Shown here: one piece after another, positions 8,717 through 28,868 of the stretch | How positions within the stretch are numbered: position 1 is the stretch's first letter | Layout of the letters: each line of letters begins with the position of its first letter | IMG/VR virus record: IMGVR_UViG_3300045933_000106 | Span: 1 to 35,588 of that record | DNA from: a virus | Direction: 5' to 3' (one strand) | Length of the DNA: 35,588 nt | Notes under the pieces: model-generated | Seen by the model: the letters and a program-made list of their open reading frames with translations, nothing else | What the model was told of the DNA's origin: nothing | The model's database searches: none | Program-made: the position numbers and the translations under genes

Positions 8717-9543
8717 TAGAAAACGCTCCCGCCGCCGAAGGGGTTTTTGCGCGGAATGTTCGGGAAGCCACCGTAGTTGGCCGAGTTGGCGAACTTGCTA
8801 TCGCACGTCTCGAGGTCGTGCGCGCAGCCGGCGGCGACGATCACGTCCTCGCCGGCGACCAGGTCAGGAATCCCATGCGTCAGCTCGATCTCATTGCCCT
8901 CGTGCCGGCGGATGCCGCGGTACTCGAGCCGGCCGCCTTCGGCCTGCCATTCGAAGTCGCCACCCGCGTAGTAGCCGTCCGGCTGCAGGGCGAAGGTCGC
9001 CGACTGAATCACGGCGTCGTCAACGGATGAGAGATTCGCAGTCGCAGAGAAGCTGAGCTTCACGGCGTTGCATTTGCGCAGGCCCGAGGAATAGAGGACG
9101 TGTGGACAGGCGCGCCCGTAGGATCGCGTGAGACCGAGGCGCCGGAAGCCGGTGAGCGTCGGCTCGCAGTGGAGCTTGCCGCGCAGCGAGCCCTCGGAGG
9201 CTGAATCGACGACGCGACCGCTCCACAGCATGGCCCGTTCGGTATCGCCCGAGAAAATGCGGTAGATGACCAGCCGCACGACGTCTGACTGAGGCACCGG
9301 CCGGAACAGATTCATGATCGCGAAATCGCGGGCGCACTCGATGTCGACCGGCGAGCGGGCCAGATCCCCGGAGTCCTCGATCTCCGTGCGCTTCAAGCTC
9401 GCCGCGGCGAACAGTTCGGTTCCGGCATAGAGAAAGTCCGAGTAGTGCGACGTGAACTGGTAGACCGTCACGCCAGATGTGAACTCATAGAGCTCGATCG
9501 GTTGCGCGTCCTGTTCGCTGCGCTCGTAGCTGTCAACGCTCAT
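8716..9543 (-). CDS. Tail hub protein, DUF2163 / phage BR0599-like
   Basis: C-terminal GCAHDLETCDSKFANSANYGGFPNIP matches the conserved BR0599 C-terminal signature (C....C...F.N..NFGGFP.iP). Position is directly before the host-specificity gene, as in GTA-type tail modules. Confidence 0.7.
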   Translation of the reverse strand: MSVDSYERSEQDAQPIELYEFTSGVTVYQFTSHYSDFLYAGTELFAAASLKRTEIEDSGDLARSPVDIECARDFAIMNLFRPVPQSDVVRLVIYRIFSGDTERAMLWSGRVVDSASEGSLRGKLHCEPTLTGFRRLGLTRSYGRACPHVLYSSGLRKCNAVKLSFSATANLSSVDDAVIQSATFALQPDGYYAGGDFEWQAEGGRLEYRGIRRHEGNEIELTHGIPDLVAGEDVIVAAGCAHDLETCDSKFANSANYGGFPNIPRKNPFGGGSVF

Positions 9544-13030: not shown

Positions 13031-15376
13031 CTAGCCCCCCACGATGGATTTCAGCGCACGCGAGTTGCGCTGCAGCTTGCGGACCAGGAACCGGTCGAAG
13101 TCCTCGGTCTCGAGGTGCTTCATCACCAGCCCAGGCTCGAGCCCGACGACGCCGGCGAAGCCCGCCTGCTTGGCGGCCGGCGTACTGGCGCCGATGCCGG
13201 CAGCACTCGCCGCCTCGATGACGCCGCCAGAGGCATAGCGGGGCGGCCGGCGCAGCTCGGCGCGCGAGGCGATGATCCCGGCGTTCAAGTCGTGCAACAG
13301 GGCGAGCATCCCCGGCCGGTTGACGACCGCTGCCCGCACGACGTACTCCCCGCTGCTCACGAGCAGCGGCTTTCCCGTCGTCGTGATCGCCGCAATGCTG
13401 TCGCTCGTGCCAGTGCCTGGCCCGCGCAGGACGCCACCTGGGGTCGCATCAATGGCGCCGCCGCCGGCGTAGCCGATCAGGCCGCCGCGCTTCATGGGGC
13501 CGATACCACGACTGGCGAGCGCCGCCCCGGAACCACCACCACCCCCGCCGAAGGCACCCATCGCCGATTTGAGGAGCTGCGTCATGATGTAGGTCGCGAG
13601 CATTTCCGACGCCATCCGCTGCAGCGAGCCTGCAACCGTCGAGGCGAGCGAGCGAAAGACATCGCCGACCGACTCGAACTCCTGCAGGTTCGAGAGGACA
13701 TCGGTCAGGCCGCCGTGCAGCGCCTCCTCGGCGCCTTCGCGGAGCGTCGCGAAGCTGTCTGAGGCGTGCAGAACGGACACCTCGACCTGCCGTATCTGGT
13801 CGTTCAACGCCTCGGCCGCCGCAATGGCCTCAGGATCGCCGCTCGCCTCCGCCGCGGCCGTCGCCTGCGCCGCGAGGTCGCGCAGCACCTGGAGCCTCTC
13901 CTGTTCAATGGCGAGGAGCTGTTGCTGGCCCTGGTACTGCGAGAGGATGCCGAGCTCGACGTCCTGCTCGATCCGCGTGCGCACCCGGGCGAGATCCTCG
14001 AGCGACCTGCCCGCCTGCGTGGAGAGCTCTTCGAACTTGATCCGGGAGGCTTCGATCGACCGCACGCGGGCGATTGCCGCCTCGTCCTGCTCGGTCACGC
14101 CGCCCGTCGCAAGCGCGAGGATCTCGCGCTGCTTGGCCAACTCGGCATCGAGCGCCCGCAGCTTCGCCTCGCTGCCCTGGCCGCTCGCCTTGAGGATCTG
14201 CTGCTCGATCTCGAAGCGCTCCTCGGCCGCCGACTTGTCGAGCCGTTGCTGCTCCTCGGCCGCGCGCTTCGCTGCTTCGGCTGCCTGCTTGGCCTCGGCT
14301 GCGCGACGCTCGGCGGCCGCGGCGGCTTTCTTGGCACCCTCCTCCGCCGTGCGTTCGGCCTCGAGCTTGGCCTTCGCCGCCTCGATCTGCGCCTGGACGG
14401 CGGCGGATTCCTTCGCGGCGGCCTCCTCGGCCACTTTGGCAGATACTTTCTGCTGATCGAGGTAGATCTGCCGCTGCTTGATGACCTCGGCGAGGTCGGA
14501 CTTGATCTTGTCGAACCGCTCGCCACCCTCGGCACCGCCCATCAGTACCGATGAGAGACCCTGCAGGGCGGTGAGCTGCCCCTTCAGCTCCCGGATCTTG
14601 GCATTGAACTCGTCGAGCTTCTTGTCTCCGGTGCCAAGAATGGCGAGCGAGAGTTCGCCGAGCCACGACTGGATCTTGCCCTGCAGCGTCGCCTTGAGGC
14701 GCTTCGCCGCCTCGTCGAGACGCTCGACTCCCACGACCGTCGACTTCTGCAGCGTGATGCCAAGCCTGTCGGCCTCGACCTCCATCGCCGCGATGCCTTT
14801 CGATCCCGCGATCAACATTGGGATCATGTCGGTGCCGGCCTTCCCGAACAGCTCGAACGCAATCCGCGTCTGGTCGGCCGGATCCTCGATCGCCTTGAAC
14901 CGGTCGGCGATGATGCCGAGCTGCTTGTCGAAGTTGAGGCCCTGCAAGTCCTTGGCGGCCAGCCCGAGTCCCGCGAGCGCGTCCTGCGCCTTCTTGCCGT
15001 CCTCGCCGGCCGAGCTCAGGTTGATCTGGAACTTCTTGATGCTCGCCGCGAGCGGCTGCAGCTCGACGTCGAACTGCTTCGCGGCGTAGGCGAGCCGGGA
15101 GAATTCTGTCGCCGAGATGCCCGCCACCTTGGACGCATCCACGATCGCATCGGCGGCGACAAAGGCCGACTTCGCGATGCTCGTCATGCCGGTGACGACG
15201 GTCGCGACGCCGATCGTGGGCAGCAGTGACTTGAAATCCTTGAACGCGCCTCCCAGGACGCCGACGCCCTTCGCGGTCTTCTTCGCCTCGCGCTCGACCT
15301 GGCGCATCGCGTCGACGACGTCGCGAACGCCATCGGCCGAGAGCCGGACGCGGACCTGTGCGGCAGTGCTGCTCAT
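13031..15376 (-). CDS. Tail tape measure protein (781 aa)
   Basis: Long Ala/Glu/Lys/Gln coiled-coil centre. C-terminal GPGTGTSDSIAA...SSGEYVVRA motif typical of tape measures. Follows the G/GT chaperone genes. Confidence 0.9.
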   Translation of the reverse strand: MSSTAAQVRVRLSADGVRDVVDAMRQVEREAKKTAKGVGVLGGAFKDFKSLLPTIGVATVVTGMTSIAKSAFVAADAIVDASKVAGISATEFSRLAYAAKQFDVELQPLAASIKKFQINLSSAGEDGKKAQDALAGLGLAAKDLQGLNFDKQLGIIADRFKAIEDPADQTRIAFELFGKAGTDMIPMLIAGSKGIAAMEVEADRLGITLQKSTVVGVERLDEAAKRLKATLQGKIQSWLGELSLAILGTGDKKLDEFNAKIRELKGQLTALQGLSSVLMGGAEGGERFDKIKSDLAEVIKQRQIYLDQQKVSAKVAEEAAAKESAAVQAQIEAAKAKLEAERTAEEGAKKAAAAAERRAAEAKQAAEAAKRAAEEQQRLDKSAAEERFEIEQQILKASGQGSEAKLRALDAELAKQREILALATGGVTEQDEAAIARVRSIEASRIKFEELSTQAGRSLEDLARVRTRIEQDVELGILSQYQGQQQLLAIEQERLQVLRDLAAQATAAAEASGDPEAIAAAEALNDQIRQVEVSVLHASDSFATLREGAEEALHGGLTDVLSNLQEFESVGDVFRSLASTVAGSLQRMASEMLATYIMTQLLKSAMGAFGGGGGGSGAALASRGIGPMKRGGLIGYAGGGAIDATPGGVLRGPGTGTSDSIAAITTTGKPLLVSSGEYVVRAAVVNRPGMLALLHDLNAGIIASRAELRRPPRYASGGVIEAASAAGIGASTPAAKQAGFAGVVGLEPGLVMKHLETEDFDRFLVRKLQRNSRALKSIVGG

Positions 15377-16046
15377 TTCAGGATGCGCGGAACCTTGGGA
15401 GGCTTCAAGTTCTTACCCGAGTGCGGCGCGAGGATTGCCCACATCGTCTGCGCGTGCCGGTAGCTCGCAAGCGCCGAGTCCTTCCAGCATTCGATGAACG
15501 CGAGCAGGAGCTCGCGCACCGGCCAGCGTTCGATCGCCTGCATGCGGTCGAAGTCGCTCCGTGCGACCTCGCGCGCGAGCGCATAGAGCTCGCCATCTAG
15601 GACGCCGCGCTCCGCCCGCTCGGGTCGGCTGCCGCCATGGCGCCGTTCGTAGACTTGAGGGAAGTCTCGAGCGAGTGAAGCGCACGCCGAAAAAAACCGA
15701 GCAGGCACTCCATGACGAGGACGTCGACGAGCTGCCGGTCCTCCTCGGTATTGAGCCCTTCCAGGAATGTCTCGGTCTCGGCGGCGAGTTCCGTCGACCA
15801 GTCCGCCTCGGTCTTGCCCTCCGGCAGCACGAACGCGGCCAGGAGCTTGCACGCCTGACCGCTGTCGATCACCGCCGCGTGCAACTCGATGACGTAGGCG
15901 GCAGGCTCCTGCCCATCGACCGGCAGCCGGCGATCGAGTCCGCTCGCGCGGATGACCGCCGAGAGCCGGTGGTGATGGCGAACCGTGCGCCGCTCGAGGT
16001 CGGCAGCGATGTACCGCCGACCGCCGAGGACGTAGACCTCGGGCAC
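15373..16046 (-). CDS. Tail assembly chaperone frameshift product (gpGT analogue, about 224 aa) made by a -1 shift at 15690-15696
   Basis: Zero frame reads GGT TTT TTT CGG. The -1 frame continues TCG GCG TGC... (SACASLARDF...) down to TGA at 15373-15375, which overlaps the tape measure ATG. Confidence 0.75.
15597..16046 (-). CDS. Tail assembly chaperone (gpG analogue, 149 aa)
   Basis: Sits between the major tail and tape measure genes. Contains the slippery run and overlaps the -1 frame ORF. Confidence 0.8.
   Translation of the reverse strand: MPEVYVLGGRRYIAADLERRTVRHHHRLSAVIRASGLDRRLPVDGQEPAAYVIELHAAVIDSGQACKLLAAFVLPEGKTEADWSTELAAETETFLEGLNTEEDRQLVDVLVMECLLGFFRRALHSLETSLKSTNGAMAAADPSGRSAAS
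15690..15696 (-). promoter_or_regulatory. Programmed -1 ribosomal frameshift slippery heptamer T TTT TTT
   Basis: A7 on the plus strand, so T7 on the coding strand, positioned as X XXY YYZ in the gpG-like frame. Confidence 0.75.
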
Positions 16047-16049
16047 CGG

Positions 16050-16829
16050 TTACACGCGCTCGAGCGTGAAGAACGGCTCGGTCGGATGGTTGTTGGAGTC
16101 CGACAGGACCGCGAAGCGCAGCGAGAACGACGAGTAGTCATCCGAGATGAACTGCATGTCGCCGTCGGAGGCCACGCTCACCTTCCAGACCGTGAGCTTG
16201 TCCTGCGCCGCGTTGCCCTCGGTGTTGGCGTCGTCGGCCTGGTAGGTCAGCTTGTAGACCGGCGAGGCCACGACGCCGCCGCGGACCTTCTGCACCGTCG
16301 CCGCCGGCTGATCCCAGGTGATCGAGAGATCGTCCCCCGTCGCGATGGTGCCGCCCGACAGAATCGTGATCTGCCCGCTCGCGGCGTTGAGCAGGTAATC
16401 GGTGTCGAGTGCCTTGGCGACCGAGCCCTCGCTCACGACGACGTTCGTCACGTTGAGCGCGCCGAGCGAGTAGGTATCGCCGGCCGTGACGTCCGTCAGT
16501 GTCGCCGTGCCCGCACTCGAGACGGCCTGCGACACCGTCGTCGTGTCGCCGGACATGAAGAGCTTGAGATTGTGCATCGTGTGCTCGTCGCACGCGGCCA
16601 CGAGCTCGAACGCCTGCCGGATCACGCGCCGGTCGAGCAGCGGGCTCGATGCTTCCGTGCTCGAGTATTTCTCGCGCGTCTCGTTGCTGCTGTTGAGCGC
16701 GAGCGAAGTGACGTTGCCCAGGAACGTGCCCATATGGGCGGTGTTCGGTGGCGTCGACCCGCTCCACGGTGCGAGAAACACGGCACCCCGGCCGAGCTTC
16801 AGGTTTTCGGCGTTTGCGTGATAGGACAT
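16050..16829 (-). CDS. Major tail (tube) protein
   Basis: 259 aa, directly upstream of the chaperone pair. Strong AGGAG SD 7 nt before the ATG. Ser/Thr/Val-rich beta-type composition. Confidence 0.7.
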   Translation of the reverse strand: MSYHANAENLKLGRGAVFLAPWSGSTPPNTAHMGTFLGNVTSLALNSSNETREKYSSTEASSPLLDRRVIRQAFELVAACDEHTMHNLKLFMSGDTTTVSQAVSSAGTATLTDVTAGDTYSLGALNVTNVVVSEGSVAKALDTDYLLNAASGQITILSGGTIATGDDLSITWDQPAATVQKVRGGVVASPVYKLTYQADDANTEGNAAQDKLTVWKVSVASDGDMQFISDDYSSFSLRFAVLSDSNNHPTEPFFTLERV

Positions 16830-16847
16830 TGCTTGACTCCTCAGAGG

Positions 16848-17288
16848 TTACTGCGCGCGCTCCGGGTCGTCCCGTCGCGACTGGTAATGCACGATGGCCT
16901 GCACCGCCGCGGCCCCGTGCATCTGGGCGCGCTGCGCAAACTCGTAGTCGACGGACTGGATCAGGCAGTCGTGGACGTCGATCGACACGCCCTGGTAGCG
17001 CGCGAGCACCTGCTCCACCCGCGCAACGTAGGGATCGAGCAGCACGTCTGGATCGTCGCCCGAGATCCGCACCTCGACGGTGATCGCGAGCTCGCGCAGG
17101 ACGAGCGGGCCGGGCCGATTGGTCGCCGGTTGAACGACATCGCGCACCGGAAAGACCGAAATCGCTGGCAGCTCCTCGTTTTCGAGCTGGTGCAGCCGCA
17201 GCCGCGAGGCCACCGGAAACCCGCTCGGCGCGTCGGTGTTCAACGCCGTCACGATCTCCGTGACGATCTGGGTGCGCAGCGTGGTCAT
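16848..17288 (-). CDS. Tail terminator / tail completion protein (DUF3168-like)
   Basis: 146 aa immediately upstream of the major tail gene. N-terminal pattern M..L...I...L......VF. Confidence 0.5.
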   Translation of the reverse strand: MTTLRTQIVTEIVTALNTDAPSGFPVASRLRLHQLENEELPAISVFPVRDVVQPATNRPGPLVLRELAITVEVRISGDDPDVLLDPYVARVEQVLARYQGVSIDVHDCLIQSVDYEFAQRAQMHGAAAVQAIVHYQSRRDDPERAQ

Positions 17289-17578
17289 TCGGAGCAGAGC
17301 AGGCGGGTCAGTTTCCCGTCGCCCTCCTTGAGCCGCTGGCGCACGGTGAGCGTGCGGCTGTCGAGCACGAACGAATCGCCCACGAATAGCACCGGATAAT
17401 CGGTGCGCGTGACGACGGAGATGTACTCGCCCACGTCCGCCGCCTCGAACCGTCCGGTGTTCACGAGCTCGTCGATCTCATCGAGCAGGCCAGCTTTCTC
17501 GTACACGACCGAGCCGACGAGGATGTCGACGCCGAAGTCGCTGAAGAACACCGGCAGATCGTCGTCAACGAAGGACAT
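17285..17578 (-). CDS. Head-tail connector / head closure protein (97 aa)
   Basis: Size and position between the capsid and tail genes. Overlapping start and stop with both neighbours. Confidence 0.45.
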   Translation of the reverse strand: MSFVDDDLPVFFSDFGVDILVGSVVYEKAGLLDEIDELVNTGRFEAADVGEYISVVTRTDYPVLFVGDSFVLDSRTLTVRQRLKEGDGKLTRLLCSE

Positions 17579-18281
17579 CCGTCACCCTCGCGCGCCGCTG
17601 CTCCACGAGCCGCCGCGCGTCGTTCGTCGGCAGTTCCACCACGTCACCTGGCGCGAGCGGCTGCCCGCGCACCTTCGTCGCGACCTTGATCTGCACCACG
17701 GTCCCGCCGGCCGCCTTGAGCAGCGTCGCCCGCTCCGGCTCGACGTAGGACGGGAAGAGTTCCGCCGGGTCGTACGGCGGCACGAGCTCGGCGAGCGGCC
17801 CGCCCAGGCTGCGCACCGTCGCCGGCACGGCATCGAAACAGCGACGCCACGATCGCAGTTGCGATTCGACCGTCCGCCTTGGCCCAACGGCCGGCGCGGG
17901 CGCGCCGTCCCAGTAACGGCCACTCCGGTACAGGTCCATCCCGCACAGCAGGATCGGATAGCCACCCATGAGCCACGCGGCCCAGACGGCATGCTGCGAG
18001 GAGAACCCGAGCAGCGGCTGATCCATGACCCGGTACGTCGCCCACGGCAGCGGGCCCACGATCGGCACGCCCGTCGCCTCGAGCCGCGTGCGATGCTCCG
18101 GCGGCTTGCTGTCGATCGCGACGATGTAGTCGCAGCGTGCCAGCGCGCAGGCGTGGTGATTCACGGAGATCAGCACGCAGCCGGCCGGCAGCCGGCCGAA
18201 TTGCTCCGGCAGGCTGGGACCGGCGCCGAGGATCGCCACCGGACGGCCGGCGTGCGCCAGCACGAGGTCGCGGAAGTTCAC
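17565..18281 (-). CDS. DUF115 / MptE-like (Maf or GT42 sialyltransferase-like) Rossmann protein with a C-terminal small domain
   Basis: GTG start at 18281 overlaps the upstream TGA (GTGA). VAILGAGPSLPEQFGRLPAGCVLISVNHHACALARCDYIVAIDS and SSQHAVWAAWLMGGYPILLCGMDLY mirror the GNGPSL / D..v..D / GY.eIyL.GiD pattern of Cst-II and Maf-type enzymes. Confidence 0.45.
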   Translation of the reverse strand: MNFRDLVLAHAGRPVAILGAGPSLPEQFGRLPAGCVLISVNHHACALARCDYIVAIDSKPPEHRTRLEATGVPIVGPLPWATYRVMDQPLLGFSSQHAVWAAWLMGGYPILLCGMDLYRSGRYWDGAPAPAVGPRRTVESQLRSWRRCFDAVPATVRSLGGPLAELVPPYDPAELFPSYVEPERATLLKAAGGTVVQIKVATKVRGQPLAPGDVVELPTNDARRLVEQRRARVTDVLR

Positions 18282-18556
18282 CGCTTCGGAGGACGGCCTG
18301 GTTTGCGTGGCTCGATCACATGCCTCACCGGAGCCGGGGCGGGAGGTCTTTCCTCCGCCCGCGCCGGCTTGCCGCCCACCAGTTCCGCAGCACTTTCCGT
18401 CGTCATGGGACCGGAGTCCGGCGGCTCCTCCTCCACCGGCTCCAGCTTGCCGATCCACGCGAGCTCCCGGGCCGCTCGGTCCGGGAGCTCAATCGTGGTG
18501 CCGACTTCCTGGCGTTCCCCGCCGACGAGGAACGCCCGCAGCACTCGCGCTTTCAT
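18278..18556 (-). CDS. Small protein following the capsid gene (93 aa)
   Basis: ATG at 18556, 5 nt after the capsid stop. MKARVLRAFLVGGERQEVGTTIELPDRAARELAWIGKLEPV, then a Pro/Glu-rich tail. Confidence 0.55.
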   Translation of the reverse strand: MKARVLRAFLVGGERQEVGTTIELPDRAARELAWIGKLEPVEEEPPDSGPMTTESAAELVGGKPARAEERPPAPAPVRHVIEPRKPGRPPKR

Positions 18557-18561
18557 GGGCG

Positions 18562-20409
18562 TCAGGTGATCGTCGAACCGTAGGAGAAGGCCGCCGGATA
18601 GCGCAGCCCGACGTCGCAGGTGTACCAGCCGCGCACAGCCGTCAGTCCGCGGGTGAAGTCCGAGAACGGATTCGTCATCAGCTCGAGGACGCCCCATTCG
18701 GCCAGGATCACCGACGGCCACCAGCCGAAGAGCATCGTGGCCGTTGCCATCTGGTTGCTCGACATCGCCGGGAAGTTGAACAGCGACCCATCGAGCAGAT
18801 TGCCCTTCCACAGGCGCTCCGTTCCGGTCGACGGCAGCTCCGGACGAGCCGCGAGCAGCGCGGCCACGGCCGGCGTCGTCACGTAACCACAGCCCGGCAT
18901 GAGCGCGTTTGCCGCGGCCACGTCGCTCTGGAACTCCAGGATTCCAGCAGCGGCGAGCGAGGTGCCCGTCACGGAGCCGACGCCCACGGTGCCGACGATG
19001 CCCTGCGGCTGACCATCGGCATTCGTGCCACGCAGGATGCCGACGTCGACCGCCAACGCGATGTCACGCGCGATGGAGGTGAGCACCAGCGTCTCAGCAT
19101 CAGGCGTCGACTGCTGCATAAGCTGGTGCGAAAGCTCCGTGAGCGCGGCCACGTTCTTCGGCGCCAGGGCGAGCTGCCCGATCGTCGGCTGGCTCTCGGT
19201 GATCTGCGTCGCCTCGTCCGCCAGCCAGTAGGCCGTATTCCCGGCCGTCATCTTCGGGATCGTGACGTTGCCCTTGAGGCCCGACAGCCGCGTCGCCCCC
19301 ATGCGCAGCGCGACCGAGGTATTGCGCAGCAGCTCGATGAAGTTGCTCGCCAGGTTGTCGGTGCCGACGAGGTACTGCGATCCGGACACGCCCGCGACCG
19401 TCATGTCGCGCTTCTGGTGCTGCGGAACCTCGCGCAGCAGCACGTCGAGCGGCACGAAGAAAGCCGTCTCGGCACGCGGGATCTGGTTGAGGCGCGCCGC
19501 GATCGCCTTGTTGCACTCGAGCTCGAGGCCGGCGTCCTTCCAGTTCTTGTTGGTGGCCGCGCGCAGTGCCCGCATGAGCGAGTAGCGGCGCGTCTCGGCC
19601 CGCGACAGGTCGAGCATCGCTGGGCTCTCCGGATTCGTCCGGCCACGCTCCTCGAGGATCGCGATCAAATCGTCGGCGACCTTGTCGAGATCGGCGCCGC
19701 TGTCGATCCAGGTGCGCTCGTACCGGTCGTCCAGCCGGTTCGCCCTGCAGATCTTGGCGATCGCCGTCTTACGGGTCTTCTCGAACTCCACCGGATTGCT
19801 CATCCGGGTCTCGACTTCGGCGCTTGCGCCCGCCGGGGCGTTGACCTGGTCGGTCATGGCTGTGCTCCTGTCGGCGGTTTGCGCCGGGTTGATGGAACGA
19901 ACGGAAACTTCGAAGTCCTGAACACTGGAACGGCCGATGCCGACCGACGGGTCCGCGGGCACCGTGACGATTGACGCCTCATACGGCTCCCAGTCGGTAA
20001 CGCGGAATTCGCCGCTCTTGCGGTCCTCCTCCGCGTCATGGATCCGATAGCCGACCGAAACATTGCGCAGTCCGCCGGCGAGCATTGCCGCCACTTCGCC
20101 CGCGCGGCCCGTGTCGAACAAGTGAGCATCGACGAGCAGGCGCCCGTCTTCGAGCCGGCCAGCGTCGACCATGCCGATCGGGTCGTCCCAGTTGTGGTTG
20201 AAGAGCAGCGGCATCGCCTGACGGGATAGACGGCCCATGCGGACCGCACCGTCCTCGTGCGACAGGATCTCGGTGCCGAAGAACCGCTCCACCGGCTCGC
20301 TGGAGGAGAGCGCAAAGCTCAGCCGCTGCGCCTCGCCCTCCTTGCGCGTTTCGAGCGCGCACAGTTCAGCCTCCCGCAACTGCAGCGGGATCGATCGCTT
20401 TTCCGTCAT
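18562..20409 (-). CDS. Prohead protease - major capsid protein fusion (HK97 type)
   Basis: The N-terminal ~170 aa look like an S78-type prohead protease (LLFNHNWDDPIGMV..., ASIVTVPADP). The C-terminal ~400 aa look like an HK97-fold capsid protein (...GNVTIPKMT..., ...LRGTNADGQPQGI..., ...MTNPFS...). AGGAG SD. Confidence 0.85.
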   Translation of the reverse strand: MTEKRSIPLQLREAELCALETRKEGEAQRLSFALSSSEPVERFFGTEILSHEDGAVRMGRLSRQAMPLLFNHNWDDPIGMVDAGRLEDGRLLVDAHLFDTGRAGEVAAMLAGGLRNVSVGYRIHDAEEDRKSGEFRVTDWEPYEASIVTVPADPSVGIGRSSVQDFEVSVRSINPAQTADRSTAMTDQVNAPAGASAEVETRMSNPVEFEKTRKTAIAKICRANRLDDRYERTWIDSGADLDKVADDLIAILEERGRTNPESPAMLDLSRAETRRYSLMRALRAATNKNWKDAGLELECNKAIAARLNQIPRAETAFFVPLDVLLREVPQHQKRDMTVAGVSGSQYLVGTDNLASNFIELLRNTSVALRMGATRLSGLKGNVTIPKMTAGNTAYWLADEATQITESQPTIGQLALAPKNVAALTELSHQLMQQSTPDAETLVLTSIARDIALAVDVGILRGTNADGQPQGIVGTVGVGSVTGTSLAAAGILEFQSDVAAANALMPGCGYVTTPAVAALLAARPELPSTGTERLWKGNLLDGSLFNFPAMSSNQMATATMLFGWWPSVILAEWGVLELMTNPFSDFTRGLTAVRGWYTCDVGLRYPAAFSYGSTIT

Positions 20410-20412
20410 CGG

Positions 20413-21987
20413 TTATCTCCTCAACGCGACGATGAGCGCCGCATCCGGCTCGGACGCGGTCTCGTCCGACTCCGGTGCTGGCGTCGGTGCCGGTTCTGGA
20501 ACGGGTTCTGGCTTGACGTAGTTCTCGGGCGAGGTGTCGAAGCTCAGGTCGGCCGCCTCCATCTCGTCGAGCTCGCGGCGGCGCTGCTTGAGCACTTCGT
20601 CGAGATCGCGGCCGCCACCCGTCTCGGCGATCACATCCGCAACCGTCGTGAACCCGGCCATGACCGCCTGCTTGTAGGCTTCGACTTCCTTGGTCGGATC
20701 GACCCACTGCCAGCCGCGCGGCTTGAACGAGACGGCCTCGAACTTGGCAGGCGCGGCGGCATACTCGGCGAACGGCAATCCCGCAACAGCCCGCGCAGCC
20801 GTGGCCTGCTGCAGCCACACCCGATGCAGCGGCTCTCGGAAACTGCGAACGAACCACTGCTGCACGGCGCGCCAGGTGTCGCGATCCTCGAGCAGCGCGA
20901 GGCGCGAGCTCGAGTAGTTCGACTGCGAGTAGTCCCGCGACAGGCTCTCGTAGGAGGTGCCGACGCCGGCGGCCATCTCGCGCAGCATGTAGCGCAGGAA
21001 CGGATCGAGCGCGGTGTTCGGCCGGTTCGGGTTGACGAAGTTGAGCTTCTCGCCGGGCTTGAGCTTTTCCAGGATTCCCGGCTCGAGCGGCAGTTGGAAA
21101 TTCCCGTCCGACTGCTCCTCGCCGAGCGCGCCCATCTCGTCGGGCGTCTCGATCGTCCCGAAGTACATGGACGCCGCACGGGCCGCCACGATTTCCGCCT
21201 CGGTGTAGCCGTCGATGTCGGCGAGCTTGCGGATGACACAGTGCATCCACGGCTCACCGCGCACTTGCGGCCAGCGATCGATGATGCGCAGGTGGATGAT
21301 CTGGTCGGCCGGCACGCGCTCAACCCGATCGACCTGGTGCAGGTCGAAGCGCACCTCGCCGGGATGCAGGCGACGGATCCAGTACGCGACCGGCCGGTAG
21401 AAGTCGTCGACCTCGACGCCCTGGACCACCTTCGCGCCTCGCGCGATCGGGCCCGGCTCGACGTAGTTATCCGCAATCCGCTCCGGCTCGATGAGCTCGA
21501 GCGACAGCGGCACCGCCGAATCGCCCGTCGCAAAATAGTGCAGCCGGATCAGCACTTCGCCCGCGTCGAACACCTGGCCCATCGCGAGCCGTTCGAAGTC
21601 CGCGAAATGCAGTTGTCCCGCGATGTGGCAGCGATCCGCACGGCACCAGTCCCACCAGGCCTTCTCGATGGCGTCGTTCACCGTGGCGCGCAACGTGTCG
21701 CGCGTGTTGCGGACCTCGGCCTGCATGCCGATGCCGGTGCCGATGACGTTGTTCACGATGATCCGCTTCGCTCGTTTGGCGTAGGACGAGTCCCGGATCA
21801 GTTGCCGCGATCGGTCCCGCAGCGGGCGCAAGCTCGAGTGCAGCTCGGCATTCGCGCTGCTGTTCGAGCTCGTGAAATAGTTCCCCGTGAGCCGCGACGC
21901 CTTCGCGGCCTGGTACATGCGCACCCCGCTGCGCTTCGCCGCCGGTGCGACCCAGCGCGCGATCCTGCTGCGGAACTGCTCAAACAC
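20413..21987 (-). CDS. Portal protein, lambda (gpB) family
   Basis: YQAAKASRLTGNYFTSSNSSANAELHSSLRPLRDRSRQLIRDSSYAKRAKRIIVNNVIGTGI is the lambda-family portal N-terminal signature. Position is after TerL and gpW. Confidence 0.85.
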   Translation of the reverse strand: MFEQFRSRIARWVAPAAKRSGVRMYQAAKASRLTGNYFTSSNSSANAELHSSLRPLRDRSRQLIRDSSYAKRAKRIIVNNVIGTGIGMQAEVRNTRDTLRATVNDAIEKAWWDWCRADRCHIAGQLHFADFERLAMGQVFDAGEVLIRLHYFATGDSAVPLSLELIEPERIADNYVEPGPIARGAKVVQGVEVDDFYRPVAYWIRRLHPGEVRFDLHQVDRVERVPADQIIHLRIIDRWPQVRGEPWMHCVIRKLADIDGYTEAEIVAARAASMYFGTIETPDEMGALGEEQSDGNFQLPLEPGILEKLKPGEKLNFVNPNRPNTALDPFLRYMLREMAAGVGTSYESLSRDYSQSNYSSSRLALLEDRDTWRAVQQWFVRSFREPLHRVWLQQATAARAVAGLPFAEYAAAPAKFEAVSFKPRGWQWVDPTKEVEAYKQAVMAGFTTVADVIAETGGGRDLDEVLKQRRRELDEMEAADLSFDTSPENYVKPEPVPEPAPTPAPESDETASEPDAALIVALRR

Positions 21988-22516
21988 GGTTCAGCCTCGC
22001 GTACAAATGCCGCGATCCGCCGAGCTCTGCGGCGACCTCCATCTTCCACTTGTCCCGCTCGGCGAGGAGGTCCGCCCGTGACCATCGCGAGAGCGAGCGG
22101 CCACCCACCTGATAGCTTGCCGCCGTGAGATTCGTCGGATCGGTCAGATAGGCTTCGATCATTTCGAGTGCGATGCGGGCGGTCGATCGATAGTCGACAT
22201 TACCGACGGCGGCCGGGTCCGCGACTACCGTCGACCACCCTTTCTCAACCGTCCTGCGCACACTGTCCGCGATGCGCGTCAGGCTGAGCCACCAGCGGTA
22301 GGATCCCGGCAACAGACCGTCGATCGTGGTCGCGTCAATGCTCGCGATGTGCGTGTCGTCGCTGGCAGTTCCTTCCACCGAGAAGCCGAAGGTCGCATTC
22401 TCGAAGTGCCACTCGCTCGTCCATTCGGAGGCCGGATAGTCGGCAAGCGTGCGGGTCCATTCCCACGTATCGCCCCCGATCAGTTCGCCCGGGACTTGTG
22501 ACGGCGTGCTCGGCAC
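21980..22516 (-). CDS. gpW-like head-tail joining protein with an N-terminal extension (178 aa)
   Basis: GTG at 22516 preceded by GGAGGT. Sits between TerL and the portal like lambda W. C-terminal YQVGGRSLSRWSRADLLAERDKWKMEV resembles the gpW core. Confidence 0.5.
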   Translation of the reverse strand: MPSTPSQVPGELIGGDTWEWTRTLADYPASEWTSEWHFENATFGFSVEGTASDDTHIASIDATTIDGLLPGSYRWWLSLTRIADSVRRTVEKGWSTVVADPAAVGNVDYRSTARIALEMIEAYLTDPTNLTAASYQVGGRSLSRWSRADLLAERDKWKMEVAAELGGSRHLYARLNRV

Positions 22517-22517
22517 G

Positions 22518-24458
22518 TTACCTCCAACTGTTGACCCAGCCATTCGGCCGGCGCTGCATCGACCGACGAGCGGTCGCCTGTTTAGGCGGCACATCGGCCA
22601 CCCGTTCCGGTGGCGGTTCAGTGTCCGCAACCGGCATCACATGCGCCGCTCGCCGGCCGAGCAGTGCTGCGCCACCACGCGCAATCATCGCGGCGTAGGC
22701 ATACACGGTGCAGTCGAGCGCTTCCTGTCGAATGCCGAGGGAGCGCGGCCGGTACATCCGCACTCGCCGGCCCTGGCTCTGCTTCGTGACCACCGTCTCG
22801 GAGGTCAACTGCTCGAGCCAGGCGTCGTCCGTCTCGGCATCGAAATGCACGTAGCCCGGGCCCGGCGAGATGACCTTCTTCAGCCGGCCATAGATCACGT
22901 CCTTGATCGTGTCGACGCCGATCAGCCATACGTCGACCGAGCGCGCCTTCGCCCGACCGGGACGGCGCGGCCACACGAGCCGCCCGGGCCCGCCCGCACC
23001 TTTGATCGCGAATACGCGCTGTCGCTTGCGACGTGCGCAGTAGGCATAGACGGACTCGGTGAAATGACCTCCGGAGTCCACGCAGACCGCTTCGACTGTC
23101 AGTTGCCGGCCATCGTCGGTCGAAAACCGCGCCCGCAACAGCTCGTCATGCTCAGCCCACAGCGCCGATTGGCCGGGATCACCACGCAGGACGTGATGTC
23201 CGAGACGCCACGCCTCCTCCTCCGCGCCCCAGCCCCAGAACGTGCATTCGAGCCGATCGTCCTGGACGTCCGTCCCGAGCGTCACCAGGCGCACGCCCGC
23301 CGGCACGTTCTCGGCCGTGTATGGCTCGCGCCGGGACATCAGGCCGACCGCTTCGACCGTCTCGCCCGAGTCTTCCCACGTTTCGCCCAGGGACGTGTTG
23401 ATCCACGTCTGCAGCGTCTCAGGCAGGCGCTTGGCCCGCAGGAACGACACGGCCATTTCGCCCCATGTCGACCAGGGCGAGTACAGCTCTGAGATGTGAA
23501 ACCCGGCCACCCCGTCAAACGACTTGCAGCCGCGCCACTCCCCGCCCGCCAGCATCCCGGGCTTGTCGGCCTCGGTGAGCTCGACGCCGCAGTGCTGGCA
23601 GACGTATGCCGCCTCCTGAGGTCGGCCGTCCGGCCAGCGCACGTTTGCCCAGATGAGGCGCTGGAACTCGCCGCAGTGCGTGCACGGCACGAAGTAATAG
23701 CGCTGGTCGGACTGCTCGAAGCCGATCTCGATGCGGGAACTGCCTTTCACGGTCGGCGTGCTCCCGGCGAGGATCTTCCGGTTCCAGAACGTGCGGGCGC
23801 GCTTCACGCCGAGCGAAATCGGATCACCCTCCGTCCCGGCGCTCGCCGGGAATCGGTCGACCTCGTCGAACATCACGACCCGAATCGGCCGGCTTGCCAG
23901 TCCCGCCGGCGAGTTCGCACCCGCGATCGTCAGACGCCCGCCCGTGAAGCTCTTGTGCAGCAGCGTATTGCCACTGTCCCGCGCCTTCGCATCGGCAATC
24001 TTGCCCGTGATCGCCGGCGTGTCCCGGATCATCGGCGCCAGCCGATCCTTCGACCAGGCTTCCGCAAGCTCGAGCGTCGGCTGCACGAGCAGCATCGGCG
24101 CCGGGTCTTGATCCACATGGAACCCGACGACGTTGTTCAGTATCTCCGTCCAGCCGATCTGCGCTGATTTCTGGACCCAGACCTCCTTGACGGCCGGGTC
24201 GGAGATCGCGTCCATCATGCCCCGCTGATAGGGGGCGCGATCAGTTCGCCACTGGCCGGGCTCTGCGCTGCTTTCCGTTGACAGCCGCCGCTCGCGGTCG
24301 GCCCACTCGCTTACCGTGAGGATCGGCGGAGGCGTCCGGCTTGACCGCGTCGCCGCCCACCACTTCCGGAGATTCGACCGGCTCGAAATCGACGAACTCG
24401 GCGAGCGCGGCGATGACCTCCGCGCGGATCGCTGCGGCAATGACGTTTGCGTCCGCAA
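22518..24458 (-). CDS. terL: Terminase large subunit, GpA family
   Basis: TVSEWADRERRLSTESSAEPGQWRTDRAPYQRGMMDAISDP...VQKSAQIGWTEILNNVVG parallels lambda gpA (AVEWAD...GRW....PFQR.IM.A......V.KSARVGYS). The start is uncertain: ATG 24458 or TTG 24440. Confidence 0.85.
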   Translation of the reverse strand: MRTQTSLPQRSARRSSPRSPSSSISSRSNLRKWWAATRSSRTPPPILTVSEWADRERRLSTESSAEPGQWRTDRAPYQRGMMDAISDPAVKEVWVQKSAQIGWTEILNNVVGFHVDQDPAPMLLVQPTLELAEAWSKDRLAPMIRDTPAITGKIADAKARDSGNTLLHKSFTGGRLTIAGANSPAGLASRPIRVVMFDEVDRFPASAGTEGDPISLGVKRARTFWNRKILAGSTPTVKGSSRIEIGFEQSDQRYYFVPCTHCGEFQRLIWANVRWPDGRPQEAAYVCQHCGVELTEADKPGMLAGGEWRGCKSFDGVAGFHISELYSPWSTWGEMAVSFLRAKRLPETLQTWINTSLGETWEDSGETVEAVGLMSRREPYTAENVPAGVRLVTLGTDVQDDRLECTFWGWGAEEEAWRLGHHVLRGDPGQSALWAEHDELLRARFSTDDGRQLTVEAVCVDSGGHFTESVYAYCARRKRQRVFAIKGAGGPGRLVWPRRPGRAKARSVDVWLIGVDTIKDVIYGRLKKVISPGPGYVHFDAETDDAWLEQLTSETVVTKQSQGRRVRMYRPRSLGIRQEALDCTVYAYAAMIARGGAALLGRRAAHVMPVADTEPPPERVADVPPKQATARRSMQRRPNGWVNSWR

Positions 24459-24819
24459 TGTTCACCAGCCGTGGACTCAATTTGGTCCCAATGCCGAGAA
24501 ATTTCGCCCGAGCGGCCACCTGGCACTCGGCCCAAAAGCGCACGACGTCGGCCCGTGGCGCCAGCTCCCCACGGCGCACGGCATTATCGTGCTCGACCTT
24601 CTCGGCCTGCGCCGCCGCCAGCCGCTGACGCTGATCGTCGTACTCCATGCCATCGCCAGGCGATAGGTACAGAGCGGATAACGCAATCTCGGAGTCGTAG
24701 AGATCCGCGCGGCCTTGACGTCGACGTGGACGGATGGAAGCGGCCTCGAGCAACGCCTTGACCGTTCGCCACGTCTTACCAGTCAGCTCTGCCAGTTCGG
24801 AGCCGGAAATTTCGCGCAT
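24241..24819 (-). CDS. terS: Terminase small subunit (Nu1-like HTH)
   Basis: MREISGSELAELTGKTWRTVKALLEAASIRP resembles the Nu1 N-terminal winged HTH. Immediately upstream of terL. Basic C-terminal tail. Confidence 0.7.
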   Translation of the reverse strand: MREISGSELAELTGKTWRTVKALLEAASIRPRRRQGRADLYDSEIALSALYLSPGDGMEYDDQRQRLAAAQAEKVEHDNAVRRGELAPRADVVRFWAECQVAARAKFLGIGTKLSPRLVNIADANVIAAAIRAEVIAALAEFVDFEPVESPEVVGGDAVKPDASADPHGKRVGRPRAAAVNGKQRRARPVAN

Positions 24820-24909
24820 CCTGTTGCTGCCATAGAGCCCTGTGGCTGGAAAAACGGCACGGACCGAATAACCCTCAGGGCCCATCCCGGTCCAAGGACC
24901 CGTGACACC

Positions 24910-25644
24910 TCATACATCCCGTCCGAGTCGCATGTTCGCCGCGAGCCGCCACCGATCGACGTACTCACGCAGGTACGCTTGTGCAGCGATGCGCTTGAAG
25001 TCGAATCGCCGCTCGTAACGTGGCGTCCTCGAGCTGAACACGAGCACTGGCTGTAGCAATCCAGGCGCCACCCTCTGGTAGACGCCCGGATGCAGTCCAC
25101 TGCCAGCCTTGGCGGCGAAGTAGCCGACCCGCTTGCGTGCCTTGCCCCTGCGCTTGCTGCGGGTCGTCACGTTCTGCGTCGGGTCAGGCGAGGCGCGCAG
25201 CTGCGAGAGTATTCGCGTGATCGTGCCGGCCGGGATATTGCCCGCGGCATTGAGCTTGAACGATCGGGCCGGATACGCGTACTCGCTGTCCGTCAACGCA
25301 CCGACTGCCCGCAATGCACGCTCGAATCGCTTGGCTCGACGTGGCCCGCCATATACCTCCGGGCCCAGGTACTTGACTGGAGGTGTTCCCTTGGTGGCCT
25401 CGTCCCTCAGGAACACATCCCGCTGGAATGGCCCCCGCTTACTCGCATATCGGGTCAGCATCACTGCCCGTTGCGTGAACGGAACAGGCGCGTGGAATGT
25501 TCGCTGGACCTCTGCCGTCAGGACGTCACGGACGTACTCGGCAGTCCGGTTAACCGCTTGGGCCGTTATCGCCGGTAGGTGTTCCCGCTCGATCCGCTTG
25601 AACTTGCGTTCGAGGTCTTTCGTGTCGAAGTCGATCCGGACCAC
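24910..25644 (-). CDS. Hypothetical late protein (244 aa), weak HK97-gp10-like N-terminus
   Basis: KDLERKFKRIEREHLPAITAQAVNRTAEYVRDVLTAEVQRTF recalls the gp10-family N-terminus. Its position upstream of terS is unusual. Confidence 0.3.
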   Translation of the reverse strand: MVRIDFDTKDLERKFKRIEREHLPAITAQAVNRTAEYVRDVLTAEVQRTFHAPVPFTQRAVMLTRYASKRGPFQRDVFLRDEATKGTPPVKYLGPEVYGGPRRAKRFERALRAVGALTDSEYAYPARSFKLNAAGNIPAGTITRILSQLRASPDPTQNVTTRSKRRGKARKRVGYFAAKAGSGLHPGVYQRVAPGLLQPVLVFSSRTPRYERRFDFKRIAAQAYLREYVDRWRLAANMRLGRDV

Positions 25645-28253: not shown

Positions 28254-28868
28254 CTACGCCTGCGTAGCCGGCGACCGAATCGTTACTCGCTGCCCGGCAT
28301 CGATCGCGAGTTCGCCCAAGTAGCCGGCCAGAGCTGCCGCGTACTCCGGGCCGCGAGCGGCGATGATGGTCTTGGCAGCCTGCTGAGGATCCTTCGCGAG
28401 CTGAACCTGCTTTGCTCTGAATCCAGCTTCGATCGCGGCGGCGTTTGCAGACAGTTCGCCGCGCACGACCTTCTCCGCCAGTGCCGGCGCATCGCGCTTC
28501 AGCCGGCGCAGGGTGTAGGTAGCAGCGTTGCCATGCTGAGTAGGTCTGACATTGTCAGAGCTACGCCCATTCCCTACTTCGCCGTTCGCAGGACCAGCAC
28601 TCACCGCCTCCCGGATCAGCGCCTGCGTGTCGGGGGACTTGCGGCAGAAGGCGAGCAGGTCGTCGACGCTGGACTCGAGCCCCTGCCAGAGCTGGTGCTC
28701 GACGAACGCCTCGAAACTGCGGAACGTCTCTCCGTGACGGTCGGTCGCCTTTTCCCACAGCCTGCCGCGTATGACGTTGGCGATCATGAACGGCAGTTGC
28801 TCGAATAGGTGCTCTTCGCCGCCGAGCATGGCGCGTTGCAGTTCACTGACGAACTCAGGCGGCTGCAT
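28254..28868 (-). CDS. Hypothetical DNA-binding protein (204 aa) with a ParB-HTH-like segment
   Basis: YTLRRLKRDAPALAEKVVRGELSANAAAIEAGFR resembles the HTH segment of ParB/KorB-type proteins. Confidence 0.4.
   Translation of the reverse strand: MQPPEFVSELQRAMLGGEEHLFEQLPFMIANVIRGRLWEKATDRHGETFRSFEAFVEHQLWQGLESSVDDLLAFCRKSPDTQALIREAVSAGPANGEVGNGRSSDNVRPTQHGNAATYTLRRLKRDAPALAEKVVRGELSANAAAIEAGFRAKQVQLAKDPQQAAKTIIAARGPEYAAALAGYLGELAIDAGQRVTIRSPATQA

Follow-up and report, generated by a model that had tools for sequence, protein, structure and literature searches.

The window analyzed here, a stretch of DNA of 35,588 nucleotides that makes up a complete 35-kb temperate phage genome, carries in its head operon a gene for a protein of two domains, in which a Rossmann-like core resembling the GT42 sialyltransferases and MptE-like enzymes is followed by a small beta domain that is homologous to the protein encoded directly upstream. 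On the basis of sequence comparisons, the two-domain architecture and the C-terminal homology to the adjoining small protein are new here. We tentatively propose that the target protein is a CMP-ulosonate-type transferase that would dock on proheads and decorate a head protein. The features of the gene and of its surroundings are collected in Table 1.

Table 1. Positions in the window of the target gene, of the two parts of its product, and of the adjoining head and tail genes.
Feature	Positions	Strand	Description
Target gene	17565..18281	(-)	238 aa, two domains: MptE-like/GT42-like core and DUF7210-like C-terminal domain; stop codon counted in
Catalytic-type core, residues 1-175	17757..18281	(-)	Rossmann-like phosphonucleotide-binding fold
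Linker and C-terminal small beta domain, residues 176-238	17568..17756	(-)	DUF7210-like, gpFI-C-terminal-like; proposed head-binding tether
S78 prohead protease and HK97-type major capsid fusion	18562..20409	(-)	PF05065 1.7e-33, PF04586 1.5e-9, phrog_617 4.7e-108
Small 92-aa gene, directly after capsid gene	18278..18556	(-)	Weak PHROG matches
gpFII-like head-tail attachment (Phage_attach)	17285..17578	(-)	PF05354 E=0.0045; start 14 nt inside target
Tail terminator	16848-17288		
Tail tube	16050-16829		

The preliminary description of this DNA, made from its letters, had reported a gene with translationally coupled ends, and both ends were indeed found to overlap neighboring genes. The GTG start (18281-18279) shares bases with the TGA (18280-18278) that ends the upstream gene, which gives GTGA, and the stop codon (17567-17565) lies past the ATG of the next gene at 17578, for an overlap of 14 nt. 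We favored this short GTG start over a 297-aa alternative because a called gene in a public collection (P0001) encodes a 238-aa protein identical to the target and because the homologues begin at the same residue as the target; the longer version (start at 18458), which overlaps the small gene in another frame, was rejected. The earlier order of the structural genes (capsid, small protein, connector, terminator, and tube) was confirmed, with the capsid gene proving to be a protease fusion, and the full succession is capsid fusion, small gene, target, gpFII-like gene, tail terminator, and tube. Syntenic gpFII-like genes occur in the relatives L002 (2e-5) and L106 (a weak precomputed PF05354 match). 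The target had been singled out as the exception in the cassette, and the cultured phages VP882 and Mano, which have the same head module, run from capsid through small protein to gpFII-like gene without a target-type gene; the target is therefore an insertion. Between positions 15000 and 25000 no promoter-like or terminator-like site was detected, and because the target is coupled inside the late operon without such a site, expression in the lysogen is unlikely. The window holds no second sugar gene besides the target and no flagellin or sugar-synthesis genes, and neither a signal peptide nor a transmembrane (TM) segment was found in the target protein.

The AlphaFold model of the target (pLDDT 92.6, pTM 0.89) was compared with the PDB by Foldseek, a check that the preliminary description had called for, and the best match was Cst-II of GT42 (1.5e-4), followed by the archaeal MptE/HPPK protein MjHPPK (4e-4), with SteA and thiamin pyrophosphokinase (TPK) also returned. 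The probability was 1.0 for MjHPPK, TPK, and Cst-II, and the MptE/TPK matches (E=4e-4 to 9e-4) had an rmsd of about 4 A, below that of Cst-II. A structural connector fold was rejected, since the search returned enzymes and no connector matches. The Pfam model PF01973 (MptE-like) matched residues 10-58 only of the target at E=1e-4, with 22.6 bits against a gathering cut-off of 34.6. Three relatives drawn from the same family profile exceeded that cut-off (P0026, 45.2 bits; P0032, 36.7; P0023, 35.3), and the PF01973 match was precomputed in 12 of 20 target homologues. When a profile of 149 family sequences (A4) was compared with the PDB, the GT42 enzymes Cst-II (1.2e-5), Cst-I (1.4e-4), and P. 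multocida ST (PmST; 1.6e-3) were matched, as were, outside GT42, MjHPPK (0.029) and Maf (5MU5; 0.038); a second family profile (A1) matched GT42 at 7e-5. In these profiles GT42 outscores MptE by some three orders of magnitude; the relation to GT42 is remote and covers about 50 residues and the N-terminal loop. The Pfam GT42 model had no match on the target at E<=1, and PHROG and NCBIfam returned nothing on it. At the level of sequence the homology of the target is more than chance (PF01973 at 1e-4, 20 homologues reaching E<=1e-11, and 198 representative clusters reaching E<=1e-30), and the original assignment to a DUF115/MptE and GT42 fold holds in the structural matches, in the GT42 profile matches, and in the relatives that pass PF01973.

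The closest match of the target in both fold and profile is Campylobacter jejuni Cst-II/Cst-I (CAZy GT42; 1RO7, 2P2V). In common with Cst-II, the target has a G-x-G-P-S-L loop at the N-terminus, an Asn that follows strand 2, a helix that begins with S-G, and a G-(I/M)-D-x-Y...Y block; the target core of 175 aa is shorter than Cst-II (about 260 aa) and is without its lid and membrane-association parts. The motifs of the core are G19-x-G21-P-S-L-P, N41-x-H43, D57, S94, G114-M-D116-x-Y118, Y123, and W145, among which the loop, the strand-end Asp (D57), and the G-x-D after the fourth strand (G114-D116) make up the Rossmann signature. The three motifs quoted in the preliminary description are all present and fall on the most conserved columns of the family (G19-L24; D51, Y52, V54, and D57; G106, P109, L112, G114, D116, and Y118). 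Family residues S94, D116, Y118, and Y123 align with S132, D154, Y156, and Y162 of Cst-II and are conserved in 98% (as S/T), 88%, 84%, and 83% of 170 family representatives, respectively; in Cst-II, the tyrosines Y156 and Y162 hold the CMP phosphate. The catalytic base is His188 in Cst-II and His202 in Cst-I (PMC4202792). The alignments to Cst-II end before His188; at column 141, the nearest candidate, 58% of the family have His and the target has Gln. H43, which is invariant in the family, lies away from this column. At column 82 the family has Asp in 84% of its members and the target has Thr.

The Maf flagellin nonulosonic-acid O-glycosyltransferases (M. magneticum 5MU5, CbMaf, and GkMaf) belong to the same PF01973 superfamily as the target. 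In the cytoplasm, these enzymes attach CMP-activated acidic sugars, Kdo among them, directly to Ser/Thr residues of a structural protein that self-assembles, and by analogy they would be the closest functional parallel to capsid decoration. The PF01973-containing enzymes CbMaf and GkMaf add Neu5Ac and Kdo to Ser/Thr of proteins, and residues E324 and D415 of MmMaf and D272, S334, and D357 of CbMaf are essential by mutation (bioRxiv 10.1101/2020.06.03.131540). The conserved D57, S94, and D116 of the target are spaced similarly to the essential Maf residues, a candidate equivalence taken from the spacing and not from an alignment to Maf. Maf proteins differ in being three-domain proteins of ~600 aa, with PF01973 in the center and flagellin-binding flanks, and in lying in flagellar or nonulosonate loci, whereas the target consists of a 175-aa core and a 60-aa phage domain encoded in a head operon.

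The pocket common to this fold fixes phosphonucleotide binding only and not sugar transfer, and it serves ATP-dependent pyrophosphokinases and the non-enzymatic SteA as well. The target might be a pyrophosphokinase, or another nucleotide-dependent enzyme directed at a small molecule or DNA and linked to packaging. Such an enzyme would transfer pyrophosphate from ATP to the hydroxymethyl or hydroxyethyl group of a metabolite or of a hydroxymethylated DNA base during packaging, with the gpFI-like domain setting it at the prohead-terminase interface. The archaeal MptE (6-hydroxymethyl-7,8-dihydropterin pyrophosphokinase, 8SD5) and thiamin pyrophosphokinase are similar to the core in size and fold, MptE-like is its sole Pfam match, MjHPPK and TPK score as well as Cst-II in Foldseek at a lower rmsd, and gpFI acts in packaging; the sequence likeness of MptE to the family, however, is limited to the N-terminal loop (E=0.007-0.03), and the profile preference for GT42 runs against this assignment.

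The DUF7210-like beta domain of the target, joined to the core by a short linker, comprises residues 176-233. The Pfam model PF23843 (DUF7210, 38 residues) matched the target at E=0.042 with 13.8 bits against a cut-off of 27, and it matched P0096 (1.9e-4), a 62-aa gene of L008 (0.007), and an 87-aa gene of L002 (0.042) among the relatives. Foldseek against BFVD matched the domain to small phage proteins annotated as DUF7210 with probabilities of 0.98-1.0. About 50 of the 170 family members have such an extension, which is N-terminal in two, and in L008 the domain is a separate gene adjoining the enzyme gene. When the 499 ORFs of the window were searched with a profile of the family C-terminal extensions, the small 92-aa ORF was matched at E=2.4e-7; the homology is visible by this profile only, as BLASTP of the C-terminal domain against the upstream small protein gave no match. 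The small protein has an N-terminal DUF7210-like domain, a Pro/Glu-rich linker, and a basic C-terminal patch, and the same architecture directly after the capsid gene was seen in L002, L026, L037, L066, L072, and L102. The small gene is a paralogue of the target C-terminal domain, and its product a candidate gpFI analogue, partner, or acceptor. Docking would most likely be on the capsid fusion, which is a candidate acceptor as well.

The resemblance to lambda gpFI is one of position and, at weak statistical strength, of fold. A family gene occupies the lambda FI slot, between the capsid and FII-like genes, in the window and in L002, L014, L047, and L106, most clearly in L106, which is without a separate small gene. 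In lambda, gpFI is likewise encoded between the E-type capsid gene and FII, and it has a small beta domain of possibly similar fold and two parts joined by a flexible linker; in the stand-alone small protein found here the domain order is reversed. The domain model matched the gpFI C-terminal domain (2LSM) with a TM score of 0.60-0.65 (probability 0.99, E=0.17), with GINS B-domains ranking higher; hhalign against lambda FI residues 77-132 was not significant (P=0.035), hmmsearch gave nothing significant for the lambda FI sequence, and the Packaging_FI Pfam model had no match. The C-terminal domain of gpFI reportedly binds gpE, and we know of no case in which a gpFI-type domain is joined to an enzyme. 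The gpFI protein bridges the capsid and terminase-DNA (PMC13595911). The FI slot of the target, the absence of a separate small gene from L106, the lack in the target of the family-typical polar residues D82 and H141, and the example of SteA, a regulator of the same fold with a conserved phosphonucleotide pocket, would all suit a non-catalytic assembly or packaging factor, that is, a gpFI-like chaperone with nucleotide sensing by its N-terminal part (as proposed for SteA) through which the metabolic state would act on head assembly or packaging. We consider such a role quite improbable: the conserved polar residues N41, H43, D57, D116, Y118, and Y123 are more typical of an enzyme, the fusions to methyltransferase and pyruvyl transferase and the enzyme-rich cassettes of relatives argue for chemistry, and the separate small DUF7210 gene of the window could already fill the FI role.

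The unstudied family is known solely from metagenomes, where it numbers about 200 close representative clusters and about 1,800 distant ones; we found nothing relevant in the literature on DUF7210 or on MptE-like/DUF115 proteins in phages. A tblastn search of 50,697 phage records with the target and one short-form member yielded one uncultured genome only and no detectable homologue in cultured phages. Genomic context was surveyed for 70 non-redundant family genes, with the neighborhood counts obtained by a crude gene caller that forces profile-positive ORFs, BLAST clustering, and Pfam searches of cluster representatives only. The family is confined to phage head modules. At least 41 of the 70 genes immediately precede the portal gene; for 26 of these, TerL lies upstream. 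All long forms (10 of 10) follow the capsid gene, and the majority of the family lies between terminase and portal. At about 20 of 40 short-form loci a conserved small protein with two TM segments is encoded immediately downstream, and therefore a membrane rather than the capsid is indicated for these forms.

The preliminary description had offered as its alternative a moron acting on the host surface. The enzyme would in this case act at the inner membrane in late infection and add a sugar, as Cst-II does, to host LPS/LOS or a different glycolipid, so as to block superinfection or to prevent progeny from adsorbing again to debris. Among solved structures, the nearest relatives (Cst-II, Cst-I, and PmST) sialylate lipooligosaccharide, the two-TM mini-protein of the short forms is a possible membrane anchor, and the GT9 neighbors of some relatives belong to the LPS heptosyltransferase family. 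The target itself is nevertheless without signal peptide or TM segment, has a domain in common with a head-module protein, and is translationally coupled in a late structural operon where no promoter-like or terminator-like site sets it apart. Conversion genes usually lie near integrase or tail-fibre genes, whereas the positions of this family are specific to the head module. The glycolipid acceptor of Cst-II/Cst-I cannot be assumed for the target, and an envelope modifier appears unlikely, with the two-TM partner of about half of the short forms remaining in its favor.

Close relatives were compared at the slot that the target occupies. The cassette of L106 contains Md, a GT9-like gene, a methyltransferase, and GT9; L107 has class I and FkbM methyltransferases; L014 has TylF-like and class I methyltransferases; and L002 has a second paralogue, methyltransferases, a CTP-dependent-kinase-like domain, and a PIG-L-like deacetylase. 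The enzyme is fused to a methyltransferase in L021 and to a pyruvyl transferase in P0096, and a PseF/KdsB-like cytidylyltransferase gene adjoins the family gene in two other loci, L007 and L089; no identification was obtained for the first 219 aa of P0092, a fusion protein. Sugar-related neighbors are occasional and not universal. The same survey bears on the pyrophosphokinase, for which the proximity of the family to terminase, portal, and capsid genes and the occurrence of a TET-associated DNA glycosyltransferase as 1 of 123 neighbors can be cited. We nonetheless judge that enzyme improbable, as pterin, thiamin, hydroxymethylase, and TET genes were found neither in the window nor in the inspected relatives, and as the recurrent neighbors are of the sugar type (GT9, TylF/FkbM, cytidylyltransferase, and pyruvyl transferase).

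The results suggest, short of proof, that the phage attaches acidic sugars to its own head. The virion decoration proposed in the preliminary description gains from the head-module domain and from the glycan-type cassettes of relatives, and its chemistry is left by the pocket of the fold at phosphonucleotide binding. As a prohead-docked transferase, the target would be expressed from the late operon along with the head proteins, and its C-terminal domain would tether the enzyme to proheads or capsids or else to the small paralogue encoded just upstream. Using a CMP-activated ulosonic acid of the cytoplasm, either CMP-Kdo taken from LPS synthesis in the host or a nonulosonic acid, the core would then decorate a head protein. 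In relatives, the GT9-like transferases, sugar-type O-methyltransferases, deacetylase, and pyruvyl transferase of the same slot may extend and trim the glycan, and the window would represent a minimal version with the transferase only. In this scheme we infer the CMP-sugar donor (rather than ATP), the head-protein acceptor, and the binding of the capsid by DUF7210. Its extension to a dedicated capsid-glycosylation system in many uncultured tailed phages, with a minimal GT42-like transferase, gpFI-like docking, and methylated acidic head glycans built from nonulosonic acids or from precursors of the host LPS core (CMP-Kdo, ADP-heptose, or CMP-Pse/Leg), is a good deal more doubtful.

Covalent glycosylation of phage virions is, to our knowledge, documented in few actinophages only. 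In the mycobacteriophages Che8, Corndog, and Myrna, phage-encoded transferases reportedly act in the cytoplasm to decorate the subunits of capsid and tail tube; as far as we know these are conventional nucleotide-diphospho-sugar glycosyltransferases unrelated to the fold of the target, with no gpFI-like tether reported. If the dedicated capsid-glycosylation system is real, a virion coat like the LPS core or like sialic acid would exist outside the actinophages. Should heads be decorated by this family, acidic-sugar virion coats would be a widespread and unrecognized phage trait with consequences for how the immune system recognizes therapeutic phages, for adsorption and aggregation, and for the mimicry of host surfaces, and the target would be the smallest enzyme known among those like Cst-II and Maf. 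Joining it to a head-binding module would be a simple and portable means of targeting an enzyme to the assembling capsid, which would be of interest for engineering. Even with another chemistry, a conserved enzyme in the terminase-portal-capsid block is an unexplained part of head morphogenesis.

The enzyme gene comprises 238 codons and a stop. It begins with a GTG (18281-18279) that overlaps the TGA of the upstream gene to give GTGA, and its own TGA (17567-17565) lies 11 nt past the ATG (17578) of the next gene, a gene overlap of 14 nt. These coordinates and overlaps, together with a matching public protein, agree with the GTGA-coupled gene of the preliminary description, and the flanking genes are as it had them: capsid, small protein, enzyme, connector, terminator, and tube. 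A 297-aa alternative beginning at GTG 18458 would overlap the small gene in another frame; it is disfavored because the public collection holds the exact 238-aa protein and the nearest homologues start at the same residue. No promoter-like or terminator-like sites were found within 15000-25000. The GC content is 0.72 for the enzyme gene and 0.70 for the small gene versus 0.63-0.68 in the flanking structural genes, and the higher value across 17565-18556 could reflect either a mosaic insertion or just an Ala/Gly/Pro/Arg-rich composition.

Coordinates of the enzyme gene and other features (window positions)
Feature	Positions	Strand	Remark
HNH_3 endonuclease	243-902	+	
RecT	1467-2387		
Integrase	2893-3846		
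Distal tail genes	4517-9543	-	
Tape measure	13031-15376		
Tail-chaperone ORFs	15373-16046	-	two, overlapping
Major tail protein	16050-16829		
Tail terminator	16848-17288		
gpFII-like head-tail attachment gene	17285-17578		
Enzyme gene	17565-18281	-	
Small gene	18278-18556	-	starts 5 nt past capsid stop codon
S78 protease + HK97 capsid fusion	18562-20409		
GpA-type terminase	22518-24458		
Helicase	28855-30741	-	

Positions 1-121 and 35468-35588 form an exact 121-nt end repeat, so the window represents a closed circle with a true genome of ∼35,467 bp (∼35.47 kb). A temperate siphovirus-like phage appears to be represented in full. The genes of the distal tail belong to the RcGTA/alphaproteobacterial type (BR0599, Phage-tail_3, and DUF2793), which hints at an alphaproteobacterial host. 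The tail-chaperone ORFs, upstream of the tape measure gene, contain a slippery TTTTTTTC run near 15696 in the classic G/GT-type layout of a programmed -1 frameshift. At its N terminus, the helicase has an HNH domain (HNH + ResIII + Helicase_C). The separate HNH_3 endonuclease may represent the HNH protein that in cos phages typically accompanies the terminase.

The fold originally suggested for the enzyme, a DUF115/GT42-like Rossmann fold, is supported by Foldseek searches with an AlphaFold model and by family profiles. In Pfam, the one meaningful match was to MptE-like (PF01973; E = 1e-4, residues 10-58), at 22.6 bits and below the cut-off of 34.6 bits; PHROGs and NCBIfam gave no match. A word-indexed search returned only 20 homologues, 12 with a precomputed PF01973 match, and an exhaustive profile search returned 198 representative clusters at E ≤ 1e-30 and 1,827 at E ≤ 1e-3. 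Several family members pass the Pfam PF01973 threshold. The model, built from a 21-sequence alignment (pLDDT 92.6, pTM 0.89), has a core of alternating strands and helices (residues 1-175), joined by a linker to a small beta domain that includes one helix (∼190-233). Its top Foldseek match in the PDB was the GT42 sialyltransferase Cst-II (E = 1.5e-4), followed by M. jannaschii HPPK/MptE, SteA (a regulator of cell division), and thiamin pyrophosphokinases, all with a probability of ∼1. Sequence profiles are more discriminating than Foldseek among these candidate relatives: a family profile of 149 sequences searched against the PDB gave E values of 1.2e-5 for Cst-II, 1.4e-4 for Cst-I, 1.6e-3 for the Pasteurella CMP-Neu5Ac sialyltransferase, 0.029 for MjHPPK, and 0.038 for Maf 5MU5, and a second family profile behaved similarly. 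Judged by sequence and modeled fold, the closest counterparts of the enzyme in mode of action would be the GT42 and Maf transferases. One alternative is a pyrophosphokinase of the MptE/TPK kind that would modify a metabolite, or DNA as it is packaged; this reading shares the Foldseek likeness and stands lower in the profile search, and we consider it unlikely.

In the profile alignment, S94, D116, Y118, and Y123 of the family correspond to S132, D154, Y156, and Y162 of Cst-II, where Y156 and Y162 hold the CMP phosphate. Polar conservation among 170 representatives was high at N41 (96%), H43 (94%), D57 (94%), S/T94 (98%), D116 (88%), Y118 (84%), Y123 (83%), and W145 (95%), and all three motifs quoted in the preliminary description are present, at the positions where family conservation is strongest. 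The pocket common to this fold is a phosphonucleotide site only, holding AMP in the pyrophosphokinases and CMP in Cst-II, and is also used by SteA (PMC12977500). The catalytic base of Cst-II, His188 (PMC4202792), falls outside the aligned block; at the sole candidate column, 58% of family members have His and the enzyme has Gln. Column 82 is Asp in 84% of the family and Thr in the enzyme. Membership of GT42, Maf, or MptE proper is not demonstrable because size, domain content, and model thresholds fall short and the catalytic histidine has no placement. We place the enzyme in the PF01973 superfamily as a divergent member. The core also occurs in fusions, with a 219-aa N-terminal domain bearing a DLD motif (residues 1-219 of homologue P0092), a Nu1/DUF1441 small-terminase-like C terminus (P0046), or an N-terminal HTH_17 domain (P0032).

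A C-terminal extension of ∼60 residues with a common pattern is found in ∼50 of the 170 representatives and is N-terminal instead in two. Its profile matches the small ORF just upstream of the enzyme gene (E = 2.4e-7; the next window ORFs were all at ≥0.1), and the small protein and the C-terminal domain are therefore paralogues; plain BLASTP did not detect the homology. Sub-threshold matches to Pfam DUF7210 were obtained for the enzyme (weak, residues 205-228, E = 0.042), P0096 (1.9e-4), and small genes of two homologue-bearing loci (62 aa in L008, 0.007; 87 aa in L002, 0.042), and the domain matches structurally DUF7210-annotated small phage proteins, including those of VP882 and P74-26. In stand-alone DUF7210-like proteins, an acidic Pro/Thr/Glu linker joins the beta domain to a basic C-terminal patch, and across unrelated loci their genes come after the capsid gene. 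The small protein of the window combines a DUF7210-like beta domain with a Pro/Glu-rich linker and the basic C-terminal patch RKPGRPPKR; this three-part protein, recurring after the capsid genes of many unrelated loci, may be a widespread gpFI analogue.

When modeled separately (pLDDT 78.6), the C-terminal domain best matched GINS B-domains. Against the solution structure of the lambda gpFI C-terminal domain (2LSM), it gave a TM score of 0.60-0.65, a probability of 0.99, and E = 0.17, and hhalign aligned its profile to lambda FI residues 77-132 at only P = 0.035. In lambda, gpFI forms a bridge between capsid and terminase (PMC13595911). Lambda FI lies between E and FII, and the gene bearing the C-terminal domain occupies the equivalent position here; in locus L106, the two-domain enzyme directly follows a lambda-E-type capsid gene. 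Popovic et al. in 2012 reportedly found that the gpFI C-terminal domain binds the head protein, and by reasoned inference we treat the DUF7210-like domain as a putative head-binding tether. That the whole protein is a non-catalytic, ligand-sensing gpFI-like chaperone, a reading that bears on both this domain and the pocket shared with SteA, seems very improbable to us.

All inspected homologues lie in phage or prophage contexts. Neighborhoods were counted for 70 non-redundant family genes from 105 loci, using a crude home-made gene caller and neighbors annotated through representatives. For at least 41 of the 70, the portal gene is just downstream, and 26 of these have the large terminase upstream. 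Most of the others adjoin head genes; the long forms, which carry the DUF7210-like domain, follow the capsid gene in 10 of 10 cases. In the cultured phages VP882 and Mano, the same head module (capsid, small protein, gpFII-like) lacks the enzyme, which marks the gene as an accessory insert in a defined slot. No homologue was detectable in cultured phages of a 50,697-record collection, and a literature search found no publications on the family. As far as could be found, a PF01973-type core joined to a DUF7210/gpFI-like domain inside a head operon has no earlier description.

In the closest relatives, the capsid/FII-like slot is expanded into cassettes, and it behaves as a variable cargo site. 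In L002 (5703-10702, a close relative phage), two enzyme paralogues bracket a seven-gene cassette in this slot: after a small DUF7210 gene and the first paralogue come a 71-aa gene, a weak CheR-like methyltransferase, a gene without assigned family, a weak PIG-L-like deacetylase, a methyltransferase with a CTP-dependent-kinase-like domain, and an N6/N4 methylase fragment, and then the second paralogue. Other close relatives have, at this slot, GT9-like, methyltransferase, and GT9 genes after the enzyme (L106), class I and FkbM methyltransferases (L107), TylF-like and class I methyltransferases (L014), an FkbM methyltransferase (L011), and an upstream methyltransferase (L001). The enzyme and DUF7210 domain are fused to a methyltransferase in L019-L021 and to a pyruvyl transferase in P0096. 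In the unrelated loci L007 and L089, a PF02348 cytidylyltransferase scoring best against PseF and KdsB models adjoins the enzyme or sits two genes off. L089 (7863-11030, a Dehalococcoidales MAG contig; also L015/L022) has two family paralogues upstream of a GpA terminase, with the cytidylyltransferase directly after one and a DUF1643 protein between them. Such neighbors are occasional, only a handful of the 123 distinct non-head neighbor clusters being sugar-related. In the window, no sugar gene was recognized besides the enzyme, which with the small DUF7210 gene forms the minimal version.

We tentatively favor, with less than even confidence, a CMP-ulosonate-type transferase docked on proheads and decorating a head protein, for which we infer both the donor and the acceptor. 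The enzyme would be made together with the head proteins, its C-terminal domain would dock it on proheads or on the small paralogue, the core would decorate a head protein, and relatives would contribute extending and methylating enzymes. Among the usual LPS precursors of the cytoplasm are CMP-Kdo and ADP-heptose. CbMaf and GkMaf, which have a PF01973 domain, put Neu5Ac and Kdo on flagellin Ser/Thr in the cytoplasm (bioRxiv 10.1101/2020.06.03.131540) and therefore provide precedent for the proposed chemistry and acceptor type.

One observation that does not fit head decoration is a conserved 53-80-aa protein predicted to have two transmembrane helices. It follows the enzyme in ∼20 of 40 scorable loci, nearly all with short forms, which lack the DUF7210-like extension, and lies between the enzyme and the portal gene (L024, L035, L065, L088, and ∼16 other loci). 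This neighbor would suit a membrane-anchored enzyme and so a modifier of host glycolipids, which we nevertheless judge an improbable role for the enzyme of the window. The preferred reading, decoration of the virion, is strengthened by gene context and is still putative. We speculate that a common catalytic core may be localized by differing partners, either a membrane anchor or a head-binding module.
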